Shown one piece after another: positions 9,011 through 54,454 of a stretch of 64,000 bases of DNA. Under the pieces are notes generated by a model. The model was given only the letters and a program-made list of their open reading frames with translations, was not told the origin of the DNA and did not search any database. Positions within the stretch are counted from its first letter, which is position 1. Every line of letters starts with the position of its first letter. The translations under genes and the position numbers were made by a program. Source of the DNA: Gemmatimonadota bacterium (GTDB taxonomy: Bacteria; Gemmatimonadota; Gemmatimonadetes; Gemmatimonadales; GWC2-71-9); the NCBI GenBank assembly GCA_041500125.1, contig JBGQLP010000004.1, positions 9,332 to 73,331 on the forward strand, read 5' to 3'.

Positions 9011-9670
9011 ATGAAACGGTTTTCCGCTGCCACCCAACTCCGGGTTCAACTGGTCTTTGCGCGGGCGCTGGAGGCGCTGGCGGAGACCTATCAACTGCAG
9101 GCGGCCGAGTTCGTCCGCCGACTCAAGTCCCGCCTCACGGTGGACGAAGCGCTCCAGCGTTACTTCCGCGAGGTCGGCGTGCCCGCGGCCCTGGAGGAGA
9201 CGGTTCGGGCGCGCGCGTTGATCTCGTTGTCCGGGCTGATCGAAAACGGCTCCCGGCAGGAGACCCGGGCAACGAACTGGACCATCCTTCGGCCGGACCA
9301 GCTGCTGATGGCGCTGCGCCGGCGGGTGCAGTACGTCGAGGAGACCAATCTCGATTGCCGGCTGGCGGCATCGATCTCGGGCGAGGCCGTGGCCGCGACC
9401 CACGTCCGGATGGCGCTGGAGACCGCCGAGGTGCTGGCTGATGAGGTGGCGCCAAACGAGGCCATCATGCTCTACATCCGCAGCTTCAATCTGCCTTCCA
9501 TCGATGCCCAGGTGGTCTACCGCACGGCGATGGCGCAGTGGGCCGAGCTGCACCCGCTTCCGGGTGAAGCCCAGGCACCGGGACGGCTGCCGGCTCCTCC
9601 GATCACGGCGGGACGCCCCCGGCTCGAGCTGCGTTCCCGTCCTGAGTTCGGCTTGCGGGTGATCGTGTAG
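9011..9670 (+). CDS. Hypothetical protein (predicted all-alpha)
   Basis: 219 aa. ATG with GAGGA 5 nt upstream. Balanced composition, unlike the Arg-rich antisense ORF 8972..9832. No recognisable motif. Confidence 0.6.
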   Translation: MKRFSAATQLRVQLVFARALEALAETYQLQAAEFVRRLKSRLTVDEALQRYFREVGVPAALEETVRARALISLSGLIENGSRQETRATNWTILRPDQLLMALRRRVQYVEETNLDCRLAASISGEAVAATHVRMALETAEVLADEVAPNEAIMLYIRSFNLPSIDAQVVYRTAMAQWAELHPLPGEAQAPGRLPAPPITAGRPRLELRSRPEFGLRVIV

Positions 9671-16196: not shown

Positions 16197-16828
16197 CTTA
16201 TGCGGTGAAGGAGATCTTCTATACCCTCCAGGGAGAGGGCGCCAACACCGGACGCGCGGCGGTGTTCTGCCGCTTTGCCGGTTGCAACCTGTGGACCGGC
16301 CGGGAAGAGGATCGCGCGGAGGCAACCTGTCAGTTCTGCGACACTGACTTCGTGGGCACCGACGGTCCGGGCGGGGGCAAGTTCGCCTCGGCGGAAGCGC
16401 TGGCCACGGCCGTTGCCGCAGCCTGGCCCGACACCAATCCGGCGCGACGCTTTGTGGTCTGCACCGGCGGGGAGCCGCTCCTCCAGCTCGATGCCCTGCT
16501 CATCAGTGCACTCCACGCCGAGGGGTTCGAGGTGGCGGTGGAAACCAACGGGACGTTGCCGCCGCTCGACGATATCGATTGGCTCTGTGTGAGCCCCAAG
16601 GCCGCGGCCCCGTTGGTCCTTCGGGCGGGCGACGAGCTCAAGCTGGTGTTCCCGCAGCAAGGGGTAGATCCCGCGCAATTCGAGCAGCTCGGGTTCGAGC
16701 ACTTCTTCCTTCAGCCGATGGATGGCCCTGAGCTGGAGGCCAACACCACTTCGGCGCTCCAGTACTGCCTGGCGCATCCGCGCTGGCGGCTCAGCCTGCA
16801 GACGCATAAGCTTCTCGGGATTCCGTAG
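16193..16828 (+). CDS. queE: 7-carboxy-7-deazaguanine synthase (radical SAM)
   Basis: ORF 16094..16828 trimmed to ATG 16193 (ATGA overlap with the queC stop). [31 protein letters not shown] followed by C-X14-C-X2-C cluster spacing. Confidence 0.9.
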
Positions 16829-16926
16829 GCGGGGCAGACGGGCAGCGGGGCAGTTCGCCCTGTTGAGCGCTGTCTTTGTGTGCGCTATTGCCGCCCCGCC
16901 GCCCCGCTGCCTCCTCTGCCCCGCTG
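16826..16926. repeat. Family B GGGGCAG-arm palindromic element, copy 1
   Basis: Starts on the queE stop: TAGGCGGGGCAGACGGGCAGCGGGGCAG. Core contains CTGTCTTTGTGTGCGC. C-rich arm CCGCCCCGCCGCCCCGCTGCCTCCTCTGCCCCGCTG ends 3 nt before the next start codon. Confidence 0.65.
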
Positions 16927-27258: not shown

Positions 27259-29198
27259 GAAATGGTCTCGCCCTGCCCCGCCGACCCGGCGCGGCCTTGC
27301 CGATGGTAGAGGTACGCCAGCAGCAGAAAGACCAGACCGAGAATGAAGACGGAGCCCACCCGATAGAGCGCGTCGAGCGACGAAAGGTCGAAGACGAGGA
27401 CCTTCACCACAGCGAGTCCGGCCACCCCGAGTCCGGCAACCCGGGCCGGCTTGAGCTCACGGCGGAAGCCCACCACGACGAGCGCGGCCGCGAACACCAG
27501 CCACCAGGCGCTCACCGCCAGACCCGCGGAAAGGCTGGCGGTCTGGGCCGAGAGGGACCGCAGCACGAAGTAGCGCTGGATCTCGCCGGTGACGCCGAAG
27601 AGCACCATCGCACCGGCCACCACCCACAGGATGGCCTGCACCACGGGGCCAGGACCGGATTCCGAGGTCACCTTCCAGAGTTTTCCAGCCAACGCGACGG
27701 TCACCGCTGCCGCGCCCCAGAGCGCCAGCGCCCAGGATCCCACGAAGGCGGGATCGGCGGGCGTCCGCTGCGCGACCGCGCCGGTGAAGAGCTGGTCGAG
27801 GGCGGCCCACAGCGTGGCGACCGCGTACCAGCGGCCATCCTCTCGATTGAGCCGGTGATCGAGCGCCGCCCAGAGCACGGCGAGCGCCAGCAGCGCCCAC
27901 ACCCGTTCGATGCCGTCCCAGTGCCGCCACACGGCAATGCCCAGCGCGGCCGCCGCGACGACCGCGAAGATCGGGCGGGGCCGCTGGTATCCCGCAATCA
28001 GGTACGGCACGGCCACGATCAGCGAAACCATGCCCTCATGCCCGTCGAACCATGGCGGCGCCAGGCCATGCACCGCCCATCCGAGCAGAAATGGCGTCAA
28101 GAAAAAGTAGACCGCCTCACCCAGGGACCAAGTCGGCACACTGGAATTCGGCAGTCGGAAGATCGGCAGGGTCAAATCGGAGCGCAGCGCGAACCACCAG
28201 ACCGGCGCGGCCAGCACGATCCCGCCGAGCAGGACGGCCCAGGGGCTTCCGAGCTGGTGACTAGCGGCGCTCACGAAAGTCCAGCCACCGGCAAACGACA
28301 GGAACCTGGTCTCCGGCCAGCGCTCCCGGAGGCCGACGTGGATGCCGGCACTCCCCCCGAGCACGCCGTACAGCAGAACCCCCCAGGCGGAGCCACGGTC
28401 CGCCGCGCCGACGTAGGCCACGCCGAAGAAGCTCAGCGCGACGATGAACATGGCCAGGCGCCAGCGGCGGCGTGCGGCCACGAAGCCGAGCCCAGCGGCC
28501 ATGCACGCGAGGTAGAGAAGAAGCAGATCGGCGTCGGCCTGGTTCCGGCCCAGCAGCAGCGGAGCGAAGAACGCGCCCAGGGCTGCCGTGGTCCCCAGCG
28601 CCTCGACGTCGATGGCATAGGCGATCATTGCCAGGGCGACGGAGACCAACGCCAATCCGATGATGCCGGTGGTGGGCGGCAGGACCCCGTACAAGCGCGC
28701 CGCGGCCCAGACACTCAGATAGATGATGGCGGCGCCGCAGCCGATCAGGGCCGCGCCATAAGTGCGGTAGCGCGGATGGAGCCGCCAGCCGACCGCTCCC
28801 ACGATGAAGCCGGAGATGGCTCCGCCGATACAGCGCATCAGGGGTGAGATCCAGCCCCGATCGAACGACAGCCGGAGGAGATAGCCGGCGGCGAGGATGA
28901 GGGCGATCACGCCGACAGCCAGGAGGACGCGCTGGCCGATCCATTGTTCGGAGGAGAGAAGCGGGGCCGCGGGGCGGAGGGGCGGCGGGGCAGATGTGGG
29001 CGGAGCGACGGAACGGGGTGGCGGGGCAGGTGACGACGGAATTGGCGTTGCTGTTTGCGTCACCGCTCCCCGGCTTTCCTGCGGCGCCGCATGCTGCCCC
29101 ACCACCCCGCTGCCCCGCTGCCCCACCAGCGCCCCCACCAATTCCTCGAGCTGGGTCACGCGCCTCTCAAGGCGCTCGATCCGGGCGTCCTCGCTCAT
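27255..29198 (-). CDS. DUF2339-like polytopic membrane protein
   Basis: 647 aa. N-terminal coiled coil (RIERLERRVTQLEELV), Pro-rich linker, then roughly 18 hydrophobic segments. This architecture is typical of DUF2339. Confidence 0.75.
   Translation of the reverse strand: MSEDARIERLERRVTQLEELVGALVGQRGSGVVGQHAAPQESRGAVTQTATPIPSSPAPPPRSVAPPTSAPPPLRPAAPLLSSEQWIGQRVLLAVGVIALILAAGYLLRLSFDRGWISPLMRCIGGAISGFIVGAVGWRLHPRYRTYGAALIGCGAAIIYLSVWAAARLYGVLPPTTGIIGLALVSVALAMIAYAIDVEALGTTAALGAFFAPLLLGRNQADADLLLLYLACMAAGLGFVAARRRWRLAMFIVALSFFGVAYVGAADRGSAWGVLLYGVLGGSAGIHVGLRERWPETRFLSFAGGWTFVSAASHQLGSPWAVLLGGIVLAAPVWWFALRSDLTLPIFRLPNSSVPTWSLGEAVYFFLTPFLLGWAVHGLAPPWFDGHEGMVSLIVAVPYLIAGYQRPRPIFAVVAAAALGIAVWRHWDGIERVWALLALAVLWAALDHRLNREDGRWYAVATLWAALDQLFTGAVAQRTPADPAFVGSWALALWGAAAVTVALAGKLWKVTSESGPGPVVQAILWVVAGAMVLFGVTGEIQRYFVLRSLSAQTASLSAGLAVSAWWLVFAAALVVVGFRRELKPARVAGLGVAGLAVVKVLVFDLSSLDALYRVGSVFILGLVFLLLAYLYHRQGRAGSAGQGETIS
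28971..29126. repeat. Family B-like GGGGCAG-arm element embedded in-frame in the DUF2339 gene
   Basis: Plus-strand G-rich arm 28971-29030 (GCGGGGCCGCGGGGCGGAGGGGCGGCGGGGCAG...GGTGGCGGGGCAGG). Core with CTGTTTGCGTCACC. C-rich arm 29093-29126 (CTGCCCCACCACCCCGCTGCCCCGCTGCCCCACC). Same polarity as the intergenic copies. Confidence 0.45.
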
Positions 29199-50472: not shown

Positions 50473-52146
<1,674 letters not shown>

Positions 52147-52149
<3 letters not shown>

Positions 52150-52284
52150 GCGGGGCAGCGGGGCGGCGGGGCAGGTTCCTTCTGAGCCAAGCACCTGTCA
52201 TCCCGAGCTTAGCGGGACCACTTCGAGGCTCTCACTGTCTTGGTGTGCACCGTCTACCGCCCCGCTGCCCCGCTGCCCACCTGC
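52147..52284. repeat. Family B GGGGCAG-arm palindromic element, copy 2
   Basis: Starts on the ettA stop: TAGGCGGGGCAGCGGGGCGGCGGGGCAGG. About 80-nt core containing CTGTCTTGGTGTGCAC. C-rich arm CCGCCCCGCTGCCCCGCTGCCCACCTGC. Confidence 0.65.
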
Positions 52285-52294
52285 GCCGCTATTA

Positions 52295-54454
52295 TTGGCC
52301 ATGATTAACCCACAGAGCAGCATCCCTTACCTGCCTGCCCGAGTCGAGGGACTGGCAGAGATCGCGATGAACTTGTGGTGGAGTTGGAGCCGCGAAGCCC
52401 GCGCTCTCTTCCACTCCATCGACGAGGCCCTCTGGCATCGCACCCGCCACAATCCGCTCGAGCTGCTCTGTCGGGTCGATCCGGCCCGGATCGCCGCCTG
52501 CGCCAGCGACAGCGAGTTCCTCCGCCGTTACGACGAAGTCATGGAACGGATGGCGCAGGAGGGGGACCACGGCAACACCTGGTTTGCCCGCAATTACCCG
52601 AATCTGAACGGCCGGCCGGTGGCGTACTTCTGCGCCGAGTTCGGGCTGCATAACTCGGTACCCATCTACTCCGGCGGTCTGGGCGTGCTGGCCGGCGACC
52701 ACTGCAAGTCGGCCAGCGATCTGGGGGTGCCGATGGTGGGCGTGGGGCTCTTCTATCGTAAGGGCTACTTCGACCAGCGTCTGAGCCTGGAAGGGTGGCA
52801 GGAGGACAGCGACGAGGAGTACGATGTCAGCTCCACTCCTCTGGTGCCGGTCAGCGGACCGAACCGCCAGCCCTGGCTCACCACCGTTCAGACTTCGGGT
52901 CGTCCGGTCCATGTGCGGGCATGGCGCATGATGGTTGGACGGGTACCGATCTACCTGCTCGACACCAATCTGGAAACCAACCACCCGGAAGATCGGGGAC
53001 TGATGAACAAGCTCTATGCCGGCGGGCCCGAGCTCCGCGTCCGCCAGGAGTGGATTCTCGGAGTCGGTGGTGTCCGCGTGCTCCGGGCCATGGACATCAA
53101 TCCCGGGGTGTGGCACGCCAATGAGGGCCACGCGGCCTTCATGCTGGTCGAGCGAGTCCGGGAATTGGTCTCCGGCAGGACGCCGTACCAGGAGGCGCTG
53201 CATCAGGTCCGCCAGCAAAGTGTCTTTACCACCCATACCCCGGTTCCCGCCGGGCATGACGCGTTTCCCGCCGATCAGTTGGAAGCCTGCACCGGGCCGA
53301 TCTGGGAAGAGATGGGCATCGATCGCAAGACGCTCTTCGCCCTGGGCGCGCACCCCTCCCTTCCCGGACAGTTTCACATGACAGTGGTGGCCATGCGGCT
53401 CTCCGGCCGGGTCAACGGGGTTTCCCGCCGGCACGGCCAGGTGAGCCGGAATCTCTGGCGCGATCTCTGGCCTAATCGCCCGTGGGAAACGGTGCCGATC
53501 GGCCACGTGACCAACGGAGTGCACCTGGCAACCTGGATGGCGAGCCCGATCATGGCGCTGCTGGACGAGCACCTGGGTCCGGATTGGGGAGATCGAATGG
53601 AGGAGCCGGGTTTTTGGGATCAGGTGCTCACCTTGAACCACGGCAAGCTCTGGGAGGCGCATCTGCGGCAGAAGCGAGCGCTCGCCAACTTCATCCGGGA
53701 GGACGCGCGGCGCCGCTTTGCCGGACAGCTGAAGGAAGCATCCCAGGTCGTCGGTGCCGGAACTCTGCTCGATCCGATGGCGTTCACCATCGGCTTCGCC
53801 CGCCGGTTCGCCACCTATAAGCGGGCCAACCTGATCTTCCGGGACATCGAGCGGCTGCGTCGCATCCTGGCCGATCCCTGGCGGCCGATTCAGATCATCT
53901 TCGCCGGCAAAGCGCATCCCGCGGACAACCCGGGCAAGGAGGTGCTGCAGAGCGTGTATCAGTTCACCCGGGACCCCACGTTCGAAGGGAGGGTGGCCTT
54001 TCTCGAGGACTACGACATGCACCTGGCCCATCTGCTGGTGCAGGGCGTGGACCTCTGGCTCAACCTACCGAGGGTTCCGCTGGAAGCGTCGGGGACCAGC
54101 GGCATGAAGGCGGCGCTGAACGGCGTCCCCCAGCTGAGCACGCTCGACGGCTGGTGGCAGGAGGGCTACGATGGGCTGAGCGGATGGGCCATCTCACCTG
54201 CGGGGGAAGGCGCGGATGCCGACGCGGCCGACGCGGAAGACTTCTACCGCCTCCTGGAGGAACAGGTCGTTCCGCTCTATTACACCCGGAACGCGCAAGG
54301 AGTGCCGCTGGGCTTCGTAGAGAAGATGCGCCACGCGCTCCGTCTGGCGGGAAGCCGGTTCACCGCGCGGCGGATGATGCGAGAGTACGTACAGGAATAC
54401 TATGCCCCAGCGATGGGCGGGGAGACGTCAGGCGACGACCCACCCACGGCGTGA
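52295..54454 (+). CDS. glgP: Alpha-glucan phosphorylase (GT35, TIGR02094 type)
   Basis: 719 aa. YFCAEFGLHNSVPIYSGGLGVLAGDHCKSASD. PLP-Lys context EASGTSGMKAALNG. Confidence 0.9.
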   Translation: MAMINPQSSIPYLPARVEGLAEIAMNLWWSWSREARALFHSIDEALWHRTRHNPLELLCRVDPARIAACASDSEFLRRYDEVMERMAQEGDHGNTWFARNYPNLNGRPVAYFCAEFGLHNSVPIYSGGLGVLAGDHCKSASDLGVPMVGVGLFYRKGYFDQRLSLEGWQEDSDEEYDVSSTPLVPVSGPNRQPWLTTVQTSGRPVHVRAWRMMVGRVPIYLLDTNLETNHPEDRGLMNKLYAGGPELRVRQEWILGVGGVRVLRAMDINPGVWHANEGHAAFMLVERVRELVSGRTPYQEALHQVRQQSVFTTHTPVPAGHDAFPADQLEACTGPIWEEMGIDRKTLFALGAHPSLPGQFHMTVVAMRLSGRVNGVSRRHGQVSRNLWRDLWPNRPWETVPIGHVTNGVHLATWMASPIMALLDEHLGPDWGDRMEEPGFWDQVLTLNHGKLWEAHLRQKRALANFIREDARRRFAGQLKEASQVVGAGTLLDPMAFTIGFARRFATYKRANLIFRDIERLRRILADPWRPIQIIFAGKAHPADNPGKEVLQSVYQFTRDPTFEGRVAFLEDYDMHLAHLLVQGVDLWLNLPRVPLEASGTSGMKAALNGVPQLSTLDGWWQEGYDGLSGWAISPAGEGADADAADAEDFYRLLEEQVVPLYYTRNAQGVPLGFVEKMRHALRLAGSRFTARRMMREYVQEYYAPAMGGETSGDDPPTA

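Follow-up and report, generated by a model that had tools for sequence, protein, structure and literature searches.

In Xanthomonas and Nostoc, arrays of G-rich heptamers (GGGAATC and GGGGAYT, respectively) have been described by Rehm et al. (2015, PLoS One, PMC4692102). There are 70–75 convergent pairs per genome, with one array on each strand and four units preferred; the arrays are no more than tens of nt away from stop codons and are kept between species with changes in length, and the repeats form G-quadruplexes (G4) in vitro. The intervening sequence (IVS) in the 23S rRNA of Coxiella burnetii combines a terminal stem of 28 bp with tandem heptamers (GACAGAT) that vary in number between strains and with an S23p open reading frame (ORF). 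It is regarded as a selfish element whose mobility mechanism is unknown, it is excised by RNase III, and an old hypothesis holds that its ORF serves mobility (PMC4990558). These two are the closest known kinds of element to the one examined here, which lies between ettA and glgP at positions 52150–52289 of a 64,000-nt stretch of DNA (the window; contig C4, positions 9332–73331) from a Gemmatimonadales soil metagenome-assembled genome (MAG) of 3.48 Mb, 65% G+C and 99.3% completeness, designated G000. Coordinates of the element are window positions. On balance, we are inclined to read it as a gene-less copy of a palindromic family with inverted GCGGGGCR arrays, in a class whose gene-bearing members carry a PF05635 protein or, in one case, a GxxExxY protein instead.

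The elements in this genus resemble the Xanthomonas and Nostoc repeats in their tandem G-rich units of 7–8 nt, dispersed distribution, convergent pairing, modal number of four units, location near stop codons and retention at orthologous sites with altered length. They differ in that the unit is an octamer and is one of at least ten families of 7–9 nt in a single genome, from a different phylum. In addition, divergent intergenic regions are not avoided, several of the sister families cannot form G4, and the units change in concert at orthologous sites. With the S23p-carrying IVS of Coxiella, Leptospira and Salmonella they share the palindromic structure, a terminal stem of some 28 bp, variable tandem units and optional four-helix-bundle ORF, and the gene-bearing copies in this genus have exactly the IVS layout. 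Unlike an IVS, the ettA copy is ORF-less, is found between protein genes and not in helix 25 or 45 of 23S rRNA, and has long pure arrays as its arms.

The whole G000 genome was searched for arrays of 6–10-nt units present in at least 2.5 copies using Tandem Repeats Finder (TRF), and 374 arrays were found. Their units, of 7–9 nt, define at least ten families, which are all built alike. The TRF consensus units included the following:

GAGAGGT-type, related variants grouped: about 60 arrays
GGCGGACR: 34 arrays
GCGGGTAR: 28 arrays
GCGGGGCR: 25 arrays
GCGGGGAR: 18 arrays
several 9-mer units: fewer arrays

The repeats at ettA, named family B when first noticed, are one of these families of the same design. 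About 17 loci in G000 are paired, with the structure (GCGGGGCN)n, core, (NGCCCCGC)n, and several lone arrays were also present. The commonest number of units is four (144 of the 374 arrays and 18 of the 25 GCGGGGCR arrays), and the ettA copy has three units plus GG on the left and four on the right, two of them degenerate. When neighbouring arrays (<400 nt apart) of all units were examined, the G-rich array preceded the C-rich array in 77 cases and the reverse order was never seen, with seven C>C and two G>G pairs making up the rest; the G-rich array is first on either strand. The strict pattern for the GCGGGGCN unit gave 12 G>C and no C>G. Cognate arms have a common unit, with a distance of 0–2 compared with a mean of 1.9 in non-cognate pairs. 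This strict polarity is predicted by none of the slippage or hairpin arguments that we were able to devise.

The full-length genes in G000 for the PF05635/TIGR02436 four-helix-bundle protein ('23S rRNA intervening-sequence protein') are all (4/4) located between inverted arrays, again with the G-rich arm first:

G000 C97:4917–5489, PF05635 gene, arm unit GGCTGTT
G000 C29:3603–4213, PF05635 gene, arm unit GGCGGGTA
G000 C3:140231–140725, PF05635 gene, arm unit GGCGGACA
G000 C5, about 9060–9499, PF05635 gene, arm unit GGACGGAGA

Twelve further PF05635 genes from relatives were likewise all framed by inverted arrays, making 16 of 16 examined. The gene in G016 (C184) has the arms (AGCGGGGC)x4.6 and (CTGCCCCG)x9.2 and that in G002 (C56) has (GGGCAGCG)x6.8 and (GCCCCGCC)x2.9; with their GCGGGGCA arms, these two are gene-bearing relatives of the ettA family in sister species. 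In G008 (C136) the arms are short GCGGGGCN arrays, and from a match between the left flanks of this gene and of G000 C29 it seems that the two genes occupy the same site. The identity of the proteins tracks the arm unit, at 75–81% within the GCGGGGCR/GGCGGGTA group, 54–61% to the GGCGGACA group and 26–47% to the heptamer groups. A single GxxExxY PD-(D/E)XK gene (TIGR04256, PF13366) was found at G000 C102:5068–5409, among CACAGAGGA/CCTCTGTGT 9-mer arrays (C102:4863–5463).

The solved structure closest to the G000 PF05635 protein is that of XCC0516 from X. campestris (PDB 2GSC, E = 9e-22). In supplementary file 2 of Rehm et al., GGGAATC repeat #15 overlaps the start codon of XCC0516, and the accessible part of the article does not discuss a link between the repeats and PF05635 (PMC4692102). 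PF05635 also resembles Avd, an accessory protein of diversity-generating retroelements (PMC10053308).

The ettA element and the genes on either side are made up as follows:

50473–52149, + strand: ettA, energy-dependent translational throttle ABC-F protein (EttA, 558 aa; TIGR03719 948 bits, NF008775 938 bits; ORF list)
52150–52175, + strand: left arm, GCGGGGCA GCGGGGCG GCGGGGCA GG, three octamer units and GG, G-rich on the + strand (sequence, direct and inverted repeats, family census)
52176–52194, + strand: left part of the core, TTCCTTCTGAGCCAAGCAC (comparison by eye with short-form cores)
52195–52234, + strand: extra segment of the core, with a small hairpin (motif match to a second palindromic family; single copy in the genome)
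52235–52257, + strand: right part of the core, with the conserved motif CTGTCTTGGTGTGC at 52235–52248 (local alignment with the queE copy)
52258–52289, + strand: right arm, CGCCCCGC TGCCCCGC TGCCCACC TGCGCCGC, four units of which the outer two are degenerate, reverse complement of the left arm (sequence, inverted repeats, stem in the minimum free energy (MFE) fold)
52290–52295, + strand: TATTAT, a hexamer resembling a −10 element, 5 nt ahead of the glgP ATG (sequence)
52301–54454, + strand: glgP-type alpha-glucan phosphorylase gene (TIGR02094 769 bits)

The element directly adjoins the ettA stop codon, TAG at 52147–52149, and is built of three GCGGGGCR units, then a core of 82 nt, then four units in inverted orientation. 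No ORF was found in the core, either in the sequence or in the ORF list. Between the arms there is a perfect inverted repeat of 17 nt and one of 20 nt at 95%, in keeping with the terminal stem (about 20–30 bp) looked for in an IVS-type element. The predicted RNA fold of the element has a free energy of −85.8 kcal/mol (z = −4.4) with the arms paired as a stem in the MFE structure, and as single-stranded DNA or as RNA the sequence would be expected to form a GC stem of at least 20 bp. The 15-mer GCGGGGCAGCGGGGC, allowing up to two mismatches, has 13 matches in the window where 1.6 would be expected, and none of 100 shuffles reached 13. The features listed in the original prediction, made from the sequence alone, are all present. 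Its stop-codon junction, TAGGCGGGGCAG, is indeed identical in the ettA copy and the copy after queE (16826–16837), a core motif is common to the two copies, and the extra segment with its own hairpin is present. The right arm runs 5 nt beyond the predicted end at 52284, to 52289, and the glgP ATG at 52301 is 16 nt after 52284 and not about 10 nt. The ettA copy is a real, ordinary, gene-less member of the family.

An in-frame TTG at 52295 lies upstream of the glgP ATG. Hexamers resembling (c)TATACT are found shortly upstream of the ATG in relatives both with and without the element (L009, L010, L011; L191), and TATTAT is part of the native glgP upstream region, outside the element. TATAAT-like hexamers (TATTAT, TATAAT and TATACT) were observed 5–8 nt ahead of the ATG of glgP and of other genes (52290–52300 in the window; L191 in G020; L009–L011). 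This spacing suggests leaderless transcripts or transcripts with a very short leader, in which case the right arm of the hairpin would fill the −35 region. A consensus scan of 51900–52500 called no sigma-70 promoter.

Two other copies are present in the window:

16829–16916, + strand: queE copy, a short form with three units, a 41-nt core and C-rich units, between the queE stop codon (TAG, 16826–16828) and the next ATG (sequence; orthologous junction in 28 species)
28961–29126, + strand: third copy, in frame in the N-terminal linker of a minus-strand membrane-protein gene (sequence; ortholog in G008, L095, arranged alike)

The core motif CTGTCTTGGTGTGC of the ettA copy matches CTGTCTTTGTGTGC of the queE copy at 13 of 14 positions, and only 0.15% of 2000 shuffles scored equally well in local alignment (p ~0.0015). 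The same motif is found as (T)GGTGTGCnGTTGCTG in short-form copies of five species. The short form has a core of about 41 nt that begins CAGT(T) and ends (T)GGTGTGCnGTTGCTG, and its members include the queE copy and C61:12441 in G000, L093, L098, L099 and L092 (reversed) in G008, and copies in G002, G016, G020 and G015. The left part of the ettA core (52176–52194) is loosely like the start of these cores (CAGTT..CCTG..GAGC) in a by-eye comparison that took in the queE copy and C61:12441 together with copies from G008, G002, G020, G015 and G016, a likeness that is weak when taken alone. The ettA copy thus looks like a short form with about 40 extra nucleotides. The cores of most GCGGGGCR pairs are unrelated to one another. 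A search of the genome with the core motif at three mismatches was uninformative, with 137 matches against 72 in a reversed control; the exact motif occurs only inside an element.

The extra segment (52195–52234) has no second copy in the G000 genome. It opens with CTGTCATCCCGAGC, which matches, with up to two mismatches, the motif found at the ends of another palindromic family, the second family (GTGTCATCCYGAGCGnAGCGARGGATC), and includes the small hairpin TCATCCCG-agcttag-CGGGAC at 52198–52218. The second family is intact at C28:1096, C5:61741 and C12:23041 in G000, is nested in the loops of octamer hairpins in G020 (L193 and L194) and occupies a hairpin site in G014. Comparison with these copies indicates that the extra segment is most likely a decayed nested insertion, a fragment of the second palindromic repeat. 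Members of the second family were often seen inside the loops of tandem-unit hairpins or replacing such hairpins at the same site, and further sites are C18:8892/8977, C20:4386/4471 and L214. A separate small hairpin module, CGGGT(A/G)CCC...GGGCGG(G/A)TGG, in two variants, recurs within or beside octamer arrays (C12:49617, C13:21167, C15:17838 and 18006, C22:624, C36:1996, C40:4558, C61:7702 and others). It is also present inside mutS and in the linker of the E2 subunit of a 2-oxo acid dehydrogenase, and in the mutS pair it lies in the right arm in G000 and G023, in the left arm in G016 and in neither arm in G008.

Arrays or whole hairpins are also translated in frame as low-complexity loops, both in G000 (the third window copy, C13:21013–21188 in mutS and C17:36605–37412 in E2) and in relatives (L101 and L102 in G008; L196 and L197 in G020). 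The loops were seen in MutS, in both linkers flanking the E3-binding domain of E2, at the N-terminus of PstB and as an N-terminal extension of a signal peptide. Within coding DNA, the unit number of the octamer families shifts in steps of three (24 nt).

Amongst relatives, triple-octamer matches were found in 13 of 25 genomes of the same genus, where counts ranged from 0 to 218, and 16 genomes from other genera of the order had at most one match each. The species bearing GCGGGGCN make up one clade (clade A), all members of which are positive, with G020 the exception; a tree built from the queE flanks and one from the mutS region are in agreement here. A second unit, GGCGGACN, is distributed differently, and G024 has 184 matches to GGCGGACN and none to GCGGGGCN.

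At the orthologous ettA–glgP junctions, whose examination the original prediction had recommended, most relatives are short and empty and the occupied sites contain hairpins with different units and cores. The spacer is <65 nt in nine Gemmatimonadales relatives. In G020 (L011) it contains GCGGGGCR arms around an unrelated core in which a palindrome is nested, in L022 there is a (GGTCGCA)4 hairpin and L009 has GGAGCG-type arms, while L010 and L018 have long spacers without arrays. The queE junction was compared in 28 species and was empty in 14, intermediate (small hairpins or lone C-arrays) in seven and full in seven, the empty spacers being 5–26 nt long. The seven full junctions belong to one clade, yet their units are GCGGGGCR, GCGGGGAA or the 9-mer GGACGGGAA, and their cores are unrelated except for those of G000 and G008.

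When sixteen elements of G008 were compared with the orthologous sites in G000, some repeat hairpin had been retained at 13. At several of these sites the core is recognisably alike and the unit is different in both arms. For example, GCGGGGCR in G008 corresponds in G000 to GGCGGACR at L098 and to GCGGGTAR at L092, and in mutS (GCGGGGCR)x4 corresponds to (GCGGGGAG)x2. The presence of the same core with a different unit in both arms means that the arms evolve in concert and faster than the cores.

The MAG G020 (MFD09206.bin.1.208) contains 218 GCGGGGCN and 91 GGCGGACN triple-unit matches, compared with 0 and 5 in its nearest sampled relative, G014. This difference points to a recent burst in G020 or to horizontal acquisition. 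The appearance of new copies was examined by comparing six sites in G020 with those in G014, G004, G021 and G043. At sites 1 and 8 the whole element is present in G020 only, and the copy at site 8 has the short-form core in reversed orientation. At sites 4 and 5 the sister genomes have one GCGGGGC unit in coding DNA, and the left arm in G020 is this unit enlarged, in frame, by exactly three more (24 nt). Between the arms lies native DNA, from a start region at one site and from the hydrophobic segment of a signal peptide at the other, whereas the inverted array on the right is new. In mutS, two arrays are found in place of Gly/Arg-rich and Pro/Ala-rich loops with little change in length (218 vs 214 nt), and here too the core is native. 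No target-site duplication or defined end was visible in five comparisons of filled and empty sites. From these comparisons, two modes seem to coexist, the arrival of complete elements and the growth of arms around native DNA, and the latter fits slippage and quasipalindrome template switching better than classical transposition of a MITE (a miniature transposable element with inverted repeats). Template switching is established as a way in which imperfect inverted repeats become perfect (PMC7202029).

These observations bear on a purely mutational origin, in which a G-rich seed near a weak complement would grow by slippage, template switching would perfect the pairing, and the PF05635 and GxxExxY genes would merely be tolerated in the loops. 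The seeded left arms and native cores at sites 4 and 5, the nearly length-neutral replacement in mutS and the established role of template switching are all in its favour, as is the finding that the number of units varies between orthologs and varies independently in the two arms. Such an origin leaves unexplained the convergence of more than 100 loci in one genome on the same unit, the 218 GCGGGGCN matches in G020 alone of its clade, the shared core motif at non-orthologous loci in five species and the framing of all 16 PF05635 genes by arrays whose unit tracks the protein subfamily. Slippage and template switching alone also do not account for an arm polarity of 77:0. We consider this origin possible but somewhat doubtful.

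Several findings weigh against placing the ettA element in a class of gene-associated, mobile repeats. The native cores together with seed expansion at sites 4 and 5 and in mutS favour growth in situ with no factor encoded by the element, and the absence of target-site duplications or defined ends at the five sites and the lack of correlation between copy numbers in cognate arms (r = 0.006) also count against it. In favour of the class, arrays of two counted units number 0–5 in six genomes without PF05635 and have a median of 47 in nineteen genomes with it (Mann–Whitney p = 0.003, Spearman rho = 0.50), but these statistics cover only the two unit families and are uncorrected for phylogeny. No GCGGGGCR-armed copy of the gene was found in G000, where the closest is C29:3603–4213 with GGCGGGTA arms, and no catalytic activity is known for PF05635 proteins. 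The idea that the short-form core derives from subterminal sequence of the gene-bearing copies was considered and set aside, as the similarity is about 10/16 by eye and unconvincing; with so weak a likeness, the descent of the hairpins from gene-bearing copies is not demonstrated. The mobility of the family is putative.

The original prediction had taken the element to belong to a non-autonomous mobile or recombinogenic repeat family and not to be an independently evolved terminator. That reading is largely borne out. The second part holds, with about 17 paired GCGGGGCR copies in G000, no U-tract and no folding bias, and so does the implied spread beyond the sites first noted, given hundreds of matches in sister species. 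Its description of shared termini around a conserved core is true of a subset of copies that includes those at queE and ettA, but most cores are unrelated. For mobility, the dispersed copies, the abundance in sister species and the filled and empty sites are in agreement, but target-site duplications are missing and some cores are native. The full-length autonomous relative that it envisaged, a transposase flanked by the same arms, has a partial counterpart in G016 and G002, where the same arms frame a gene, but that gene encodes a PF05635 four-helix-bundle protein and not a transposase.

A selected RNA device, such as a terminator, an mRNA 3′-end stabiliser or a processing site that parts the ettA transcript from that of glgP, would account for a strong stem that begins on the stop codon. 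Of the 58 array ends in G000 that face a stop codon, 32 are between −6 and +5 nt from it, and the hairpins retained at 13 of the 16 G008/G000 orthologous sites are also compatible with such a role, as is the fact that other bacteria have IVS stems of like design that serve RNase III as substrates (PMC4990558). The empty orthologous queE spacers, at only 5–26 nt, provide an ordinary explanation for the stop-codon junction, since any occupant of such a spacer abuts the stop codon. Of the 77 pairs, 38 are between co-directional genes, 10 between convergent and 10 between divergent genes, 14 are within genes and five are at contig edges. For the intergenic pairs these proportions are those of the genomic background (67/16/17%), with no preference for gene orientation, and divergent spacers are occupied at the background rate (10/58 vs 17%). 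A scan of 51900–52500 found no terminator-like tail or U-tract; an intrinsic terminator would have a loop of 3–8 nt and a U-tract behind its stem, whereas the loop here measures 82 nt and is followed, after the stem, by the tail TATTATTGGCC.

The RNA folds of the sense and antisense strands were equally stable (24 vs 28 pairs, Wilcoxon p = 0.43, for the 52 pairs with a defined direction of transcription), and G-U pairs numbered 193 and 207, respectively. With no strand asymmetry in folding or in G-U pairs, the symmetry is a property of the DNA and not of one transcript, and selection at the RNA level was set aside. Identity with an Rfam family was also rejected, as only sub-threshold matches to microRNA precursors were obtained, reflecting the long hairpin. 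Neither of the RNase III domains PF14622 and PF00636 had a match in the 99.3% complete G000 genome, and PF14622 matched in only one of 41 Gemmatimonadales genomes compared with eight of 14 control genomes. Gemmatimonadales may therefore be without classical RNase III. Processing by RNase III on the IVS analogy was rejected for this organism on these grounds, and with no detectable RNase III in the order, excision by this enzyme cannot be the fate of the RNA here, unlike that of an IVS. The absence of RNase III may help to explain the tolerance of long perfect stems inside operons and genes. There was no sign of selection as a terminator or other RNA device, and we regard that explanation as improbable.

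A role as G4 elements, with the G-rich arms forming G4 in DNA or RNA and regulating replication or expression as proposed for GGGAATC, would agree with the predominance of four units, which matches the four-tract rule emphasised by Rehm et al. (PMC4692102). Judged by sequence, however, either arm of the ettA copy holds only three runs of G3 or longer, one fewer than the four needed, and the sister families GGCTGTT, GAGAGGT, GTCGCCA and AACGGCT have no G3 run and show the same architecture and polarity. GGGG tracts with 4-nt loops are good G4 formers, a point that speaks for such a role, but the complementary arm competes for pairing. The jump from one unit to four has an ordinary reason in coding DNA, as octamers can change in frame only in steps of three. 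The G4 explanation is in our view very improbable.

Known mobile systems were also considered as the source of the arrays. A MITE derived from an insertion sequence with a DDE transposase was rejected because there is no target-site duplication at five sites and no transposase between the same terminal repeats in G020 or G000. An autonomous transposon between distant arms was likewise rejected, as the 5.2-kb and 7.4-kb intervals between a G-array and a C-array in G020 contain genes for CheA, a pseudouridine synthase, a D-Ala-D-Ala carboxypeptidase and AroB. In G000, no transposase was found in such intervals of 250–2500 nt, which contain PF05635, GxxExxY, HslV or a DnaE-like gene between two separate hairpins. 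The hslV gene (C57:1155–1875) lies between AGGTAAG and CCTCTTA heptamer arrays, an instance of inverted arrays flanking native DNA. Repeat addition templated by a reverse transcriptase was set aside, as RVT_1 was found in eight of 31 genomes and was absent from the array-rich G020, G002, G015, G016, G017, G023 and G024.

The elements resemble repetitive extragenic palindromic (REP) sequences and their doublets (REPINs), which are linked to REP-associated tyrosine transposases (RAYTs), in being non-autonomous palindromic doublets of fixed orientation, with many copies, vertical inheritance and a single-copy gene framed by the same repeats (PMC3116915). They differ from REP/REPIN sequences in that the arms are tandem repeats with no conserved GTAG. 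The single RAYT-type Y1 transposase gene of G000 (C54:10886–11224) is followed by an inverted pair of a GTAG-bearing REP, GTAGGGCCACCCTCATGGGTGGCCC (region C54:10300–11900), and so is beside a different palindrome. The RAYT and the octamer arrays are also not co-distributed; G008 has 95 array matches and no RAYT, and G003, G005 and G009 have a RAYT but no arrays. The REP/RAYT system at C54 is separate from the octamer arrays, and RAYT was rejected as their source.

Cyanobacterial short tandemly repeated repetitive (STRR) heptamers were reportedly described by Mazel et al. in 1990, and Elhai et al. are said to have found small dispersed repeats within heptamer arrays in 2008. The TAACTGA repeats, also heptamers, are suspected of horizontal spread (MacGregor 2015, PMC4679880). 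Their sets are direct in 169 cases and inverted in one, lie just upstream of start codons and have been proposed to be binding sites of a translational regulator (PMC4679880). Like the STRR and TAACTGA repeats, the arrays described here are short tandem units, abundant in intergenic DNA, lineage-specific and patchy, with no known mechanism of spread. The inverted pairs of this family distinguish it from TAACTGA, where the arrays are near-exclusively direct.

For the ettA element as a gene-less copy within the PF05635-associated class, the following history can be proposed. A short original ettA–glgP spacer may have been colonised by the element, and its loop may later have gained the fragment of the second palindromic repeat. 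The arms would be kept near-perfect by concerted evolution at the DNA level, with slippage altering the number of units and arm-to-arm template switching restoring complementarity. The existence of the family, the polarity of its arms, the turnover at fixed sites and the association with PF05635 genes are shown by the data, while how the arms are copied and what part the protein may play in this are inferred. A broader proposal is that the tandem-unit hairpins, the Xanthomonas and Nostoc heptamers and the S23p-carrying IVS are one widespread mobile class. A pentameric, Avd-like PF05635 protein would read four to five units of its own arms and, alone or with the GxxExxY nuclease, would copy the arms, with or without cargo, to new sites and to seed units. 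The ettA element would then be MITE-like and the unit families would be co-evolving specificity classes. We put this forward only tentatively and think it rather unlikely.

For decades, short tandem heptamer and octamer repeats, such as the cyanobacterial STRR, the Xanthomonas GGGAATC and the Beggiatoa TAACTGA repeats, have been recorded with neither an origin nor a mechanism to account for them, and the same is true of 23S rRNA IVS. This genus provides a compact test case, with hundreds of hairpins, at least ten unit families, strict polarity, concerted change of the arms, an apparent recent burst in G020 next to a clean G014 and a protein that tracks the unit. The elements also have practical consequences, as they break MAG assemblies and put translated low-complexity loops into housekeeping proteins (MutS, E2, PstB and signal peptides), confusing gene calling and the choice of start codon. 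The gene-bearing copies make the origin of the repeats testable at the bench, by assays of binding between protein and array and by nuclease and trap assays in E. coli.

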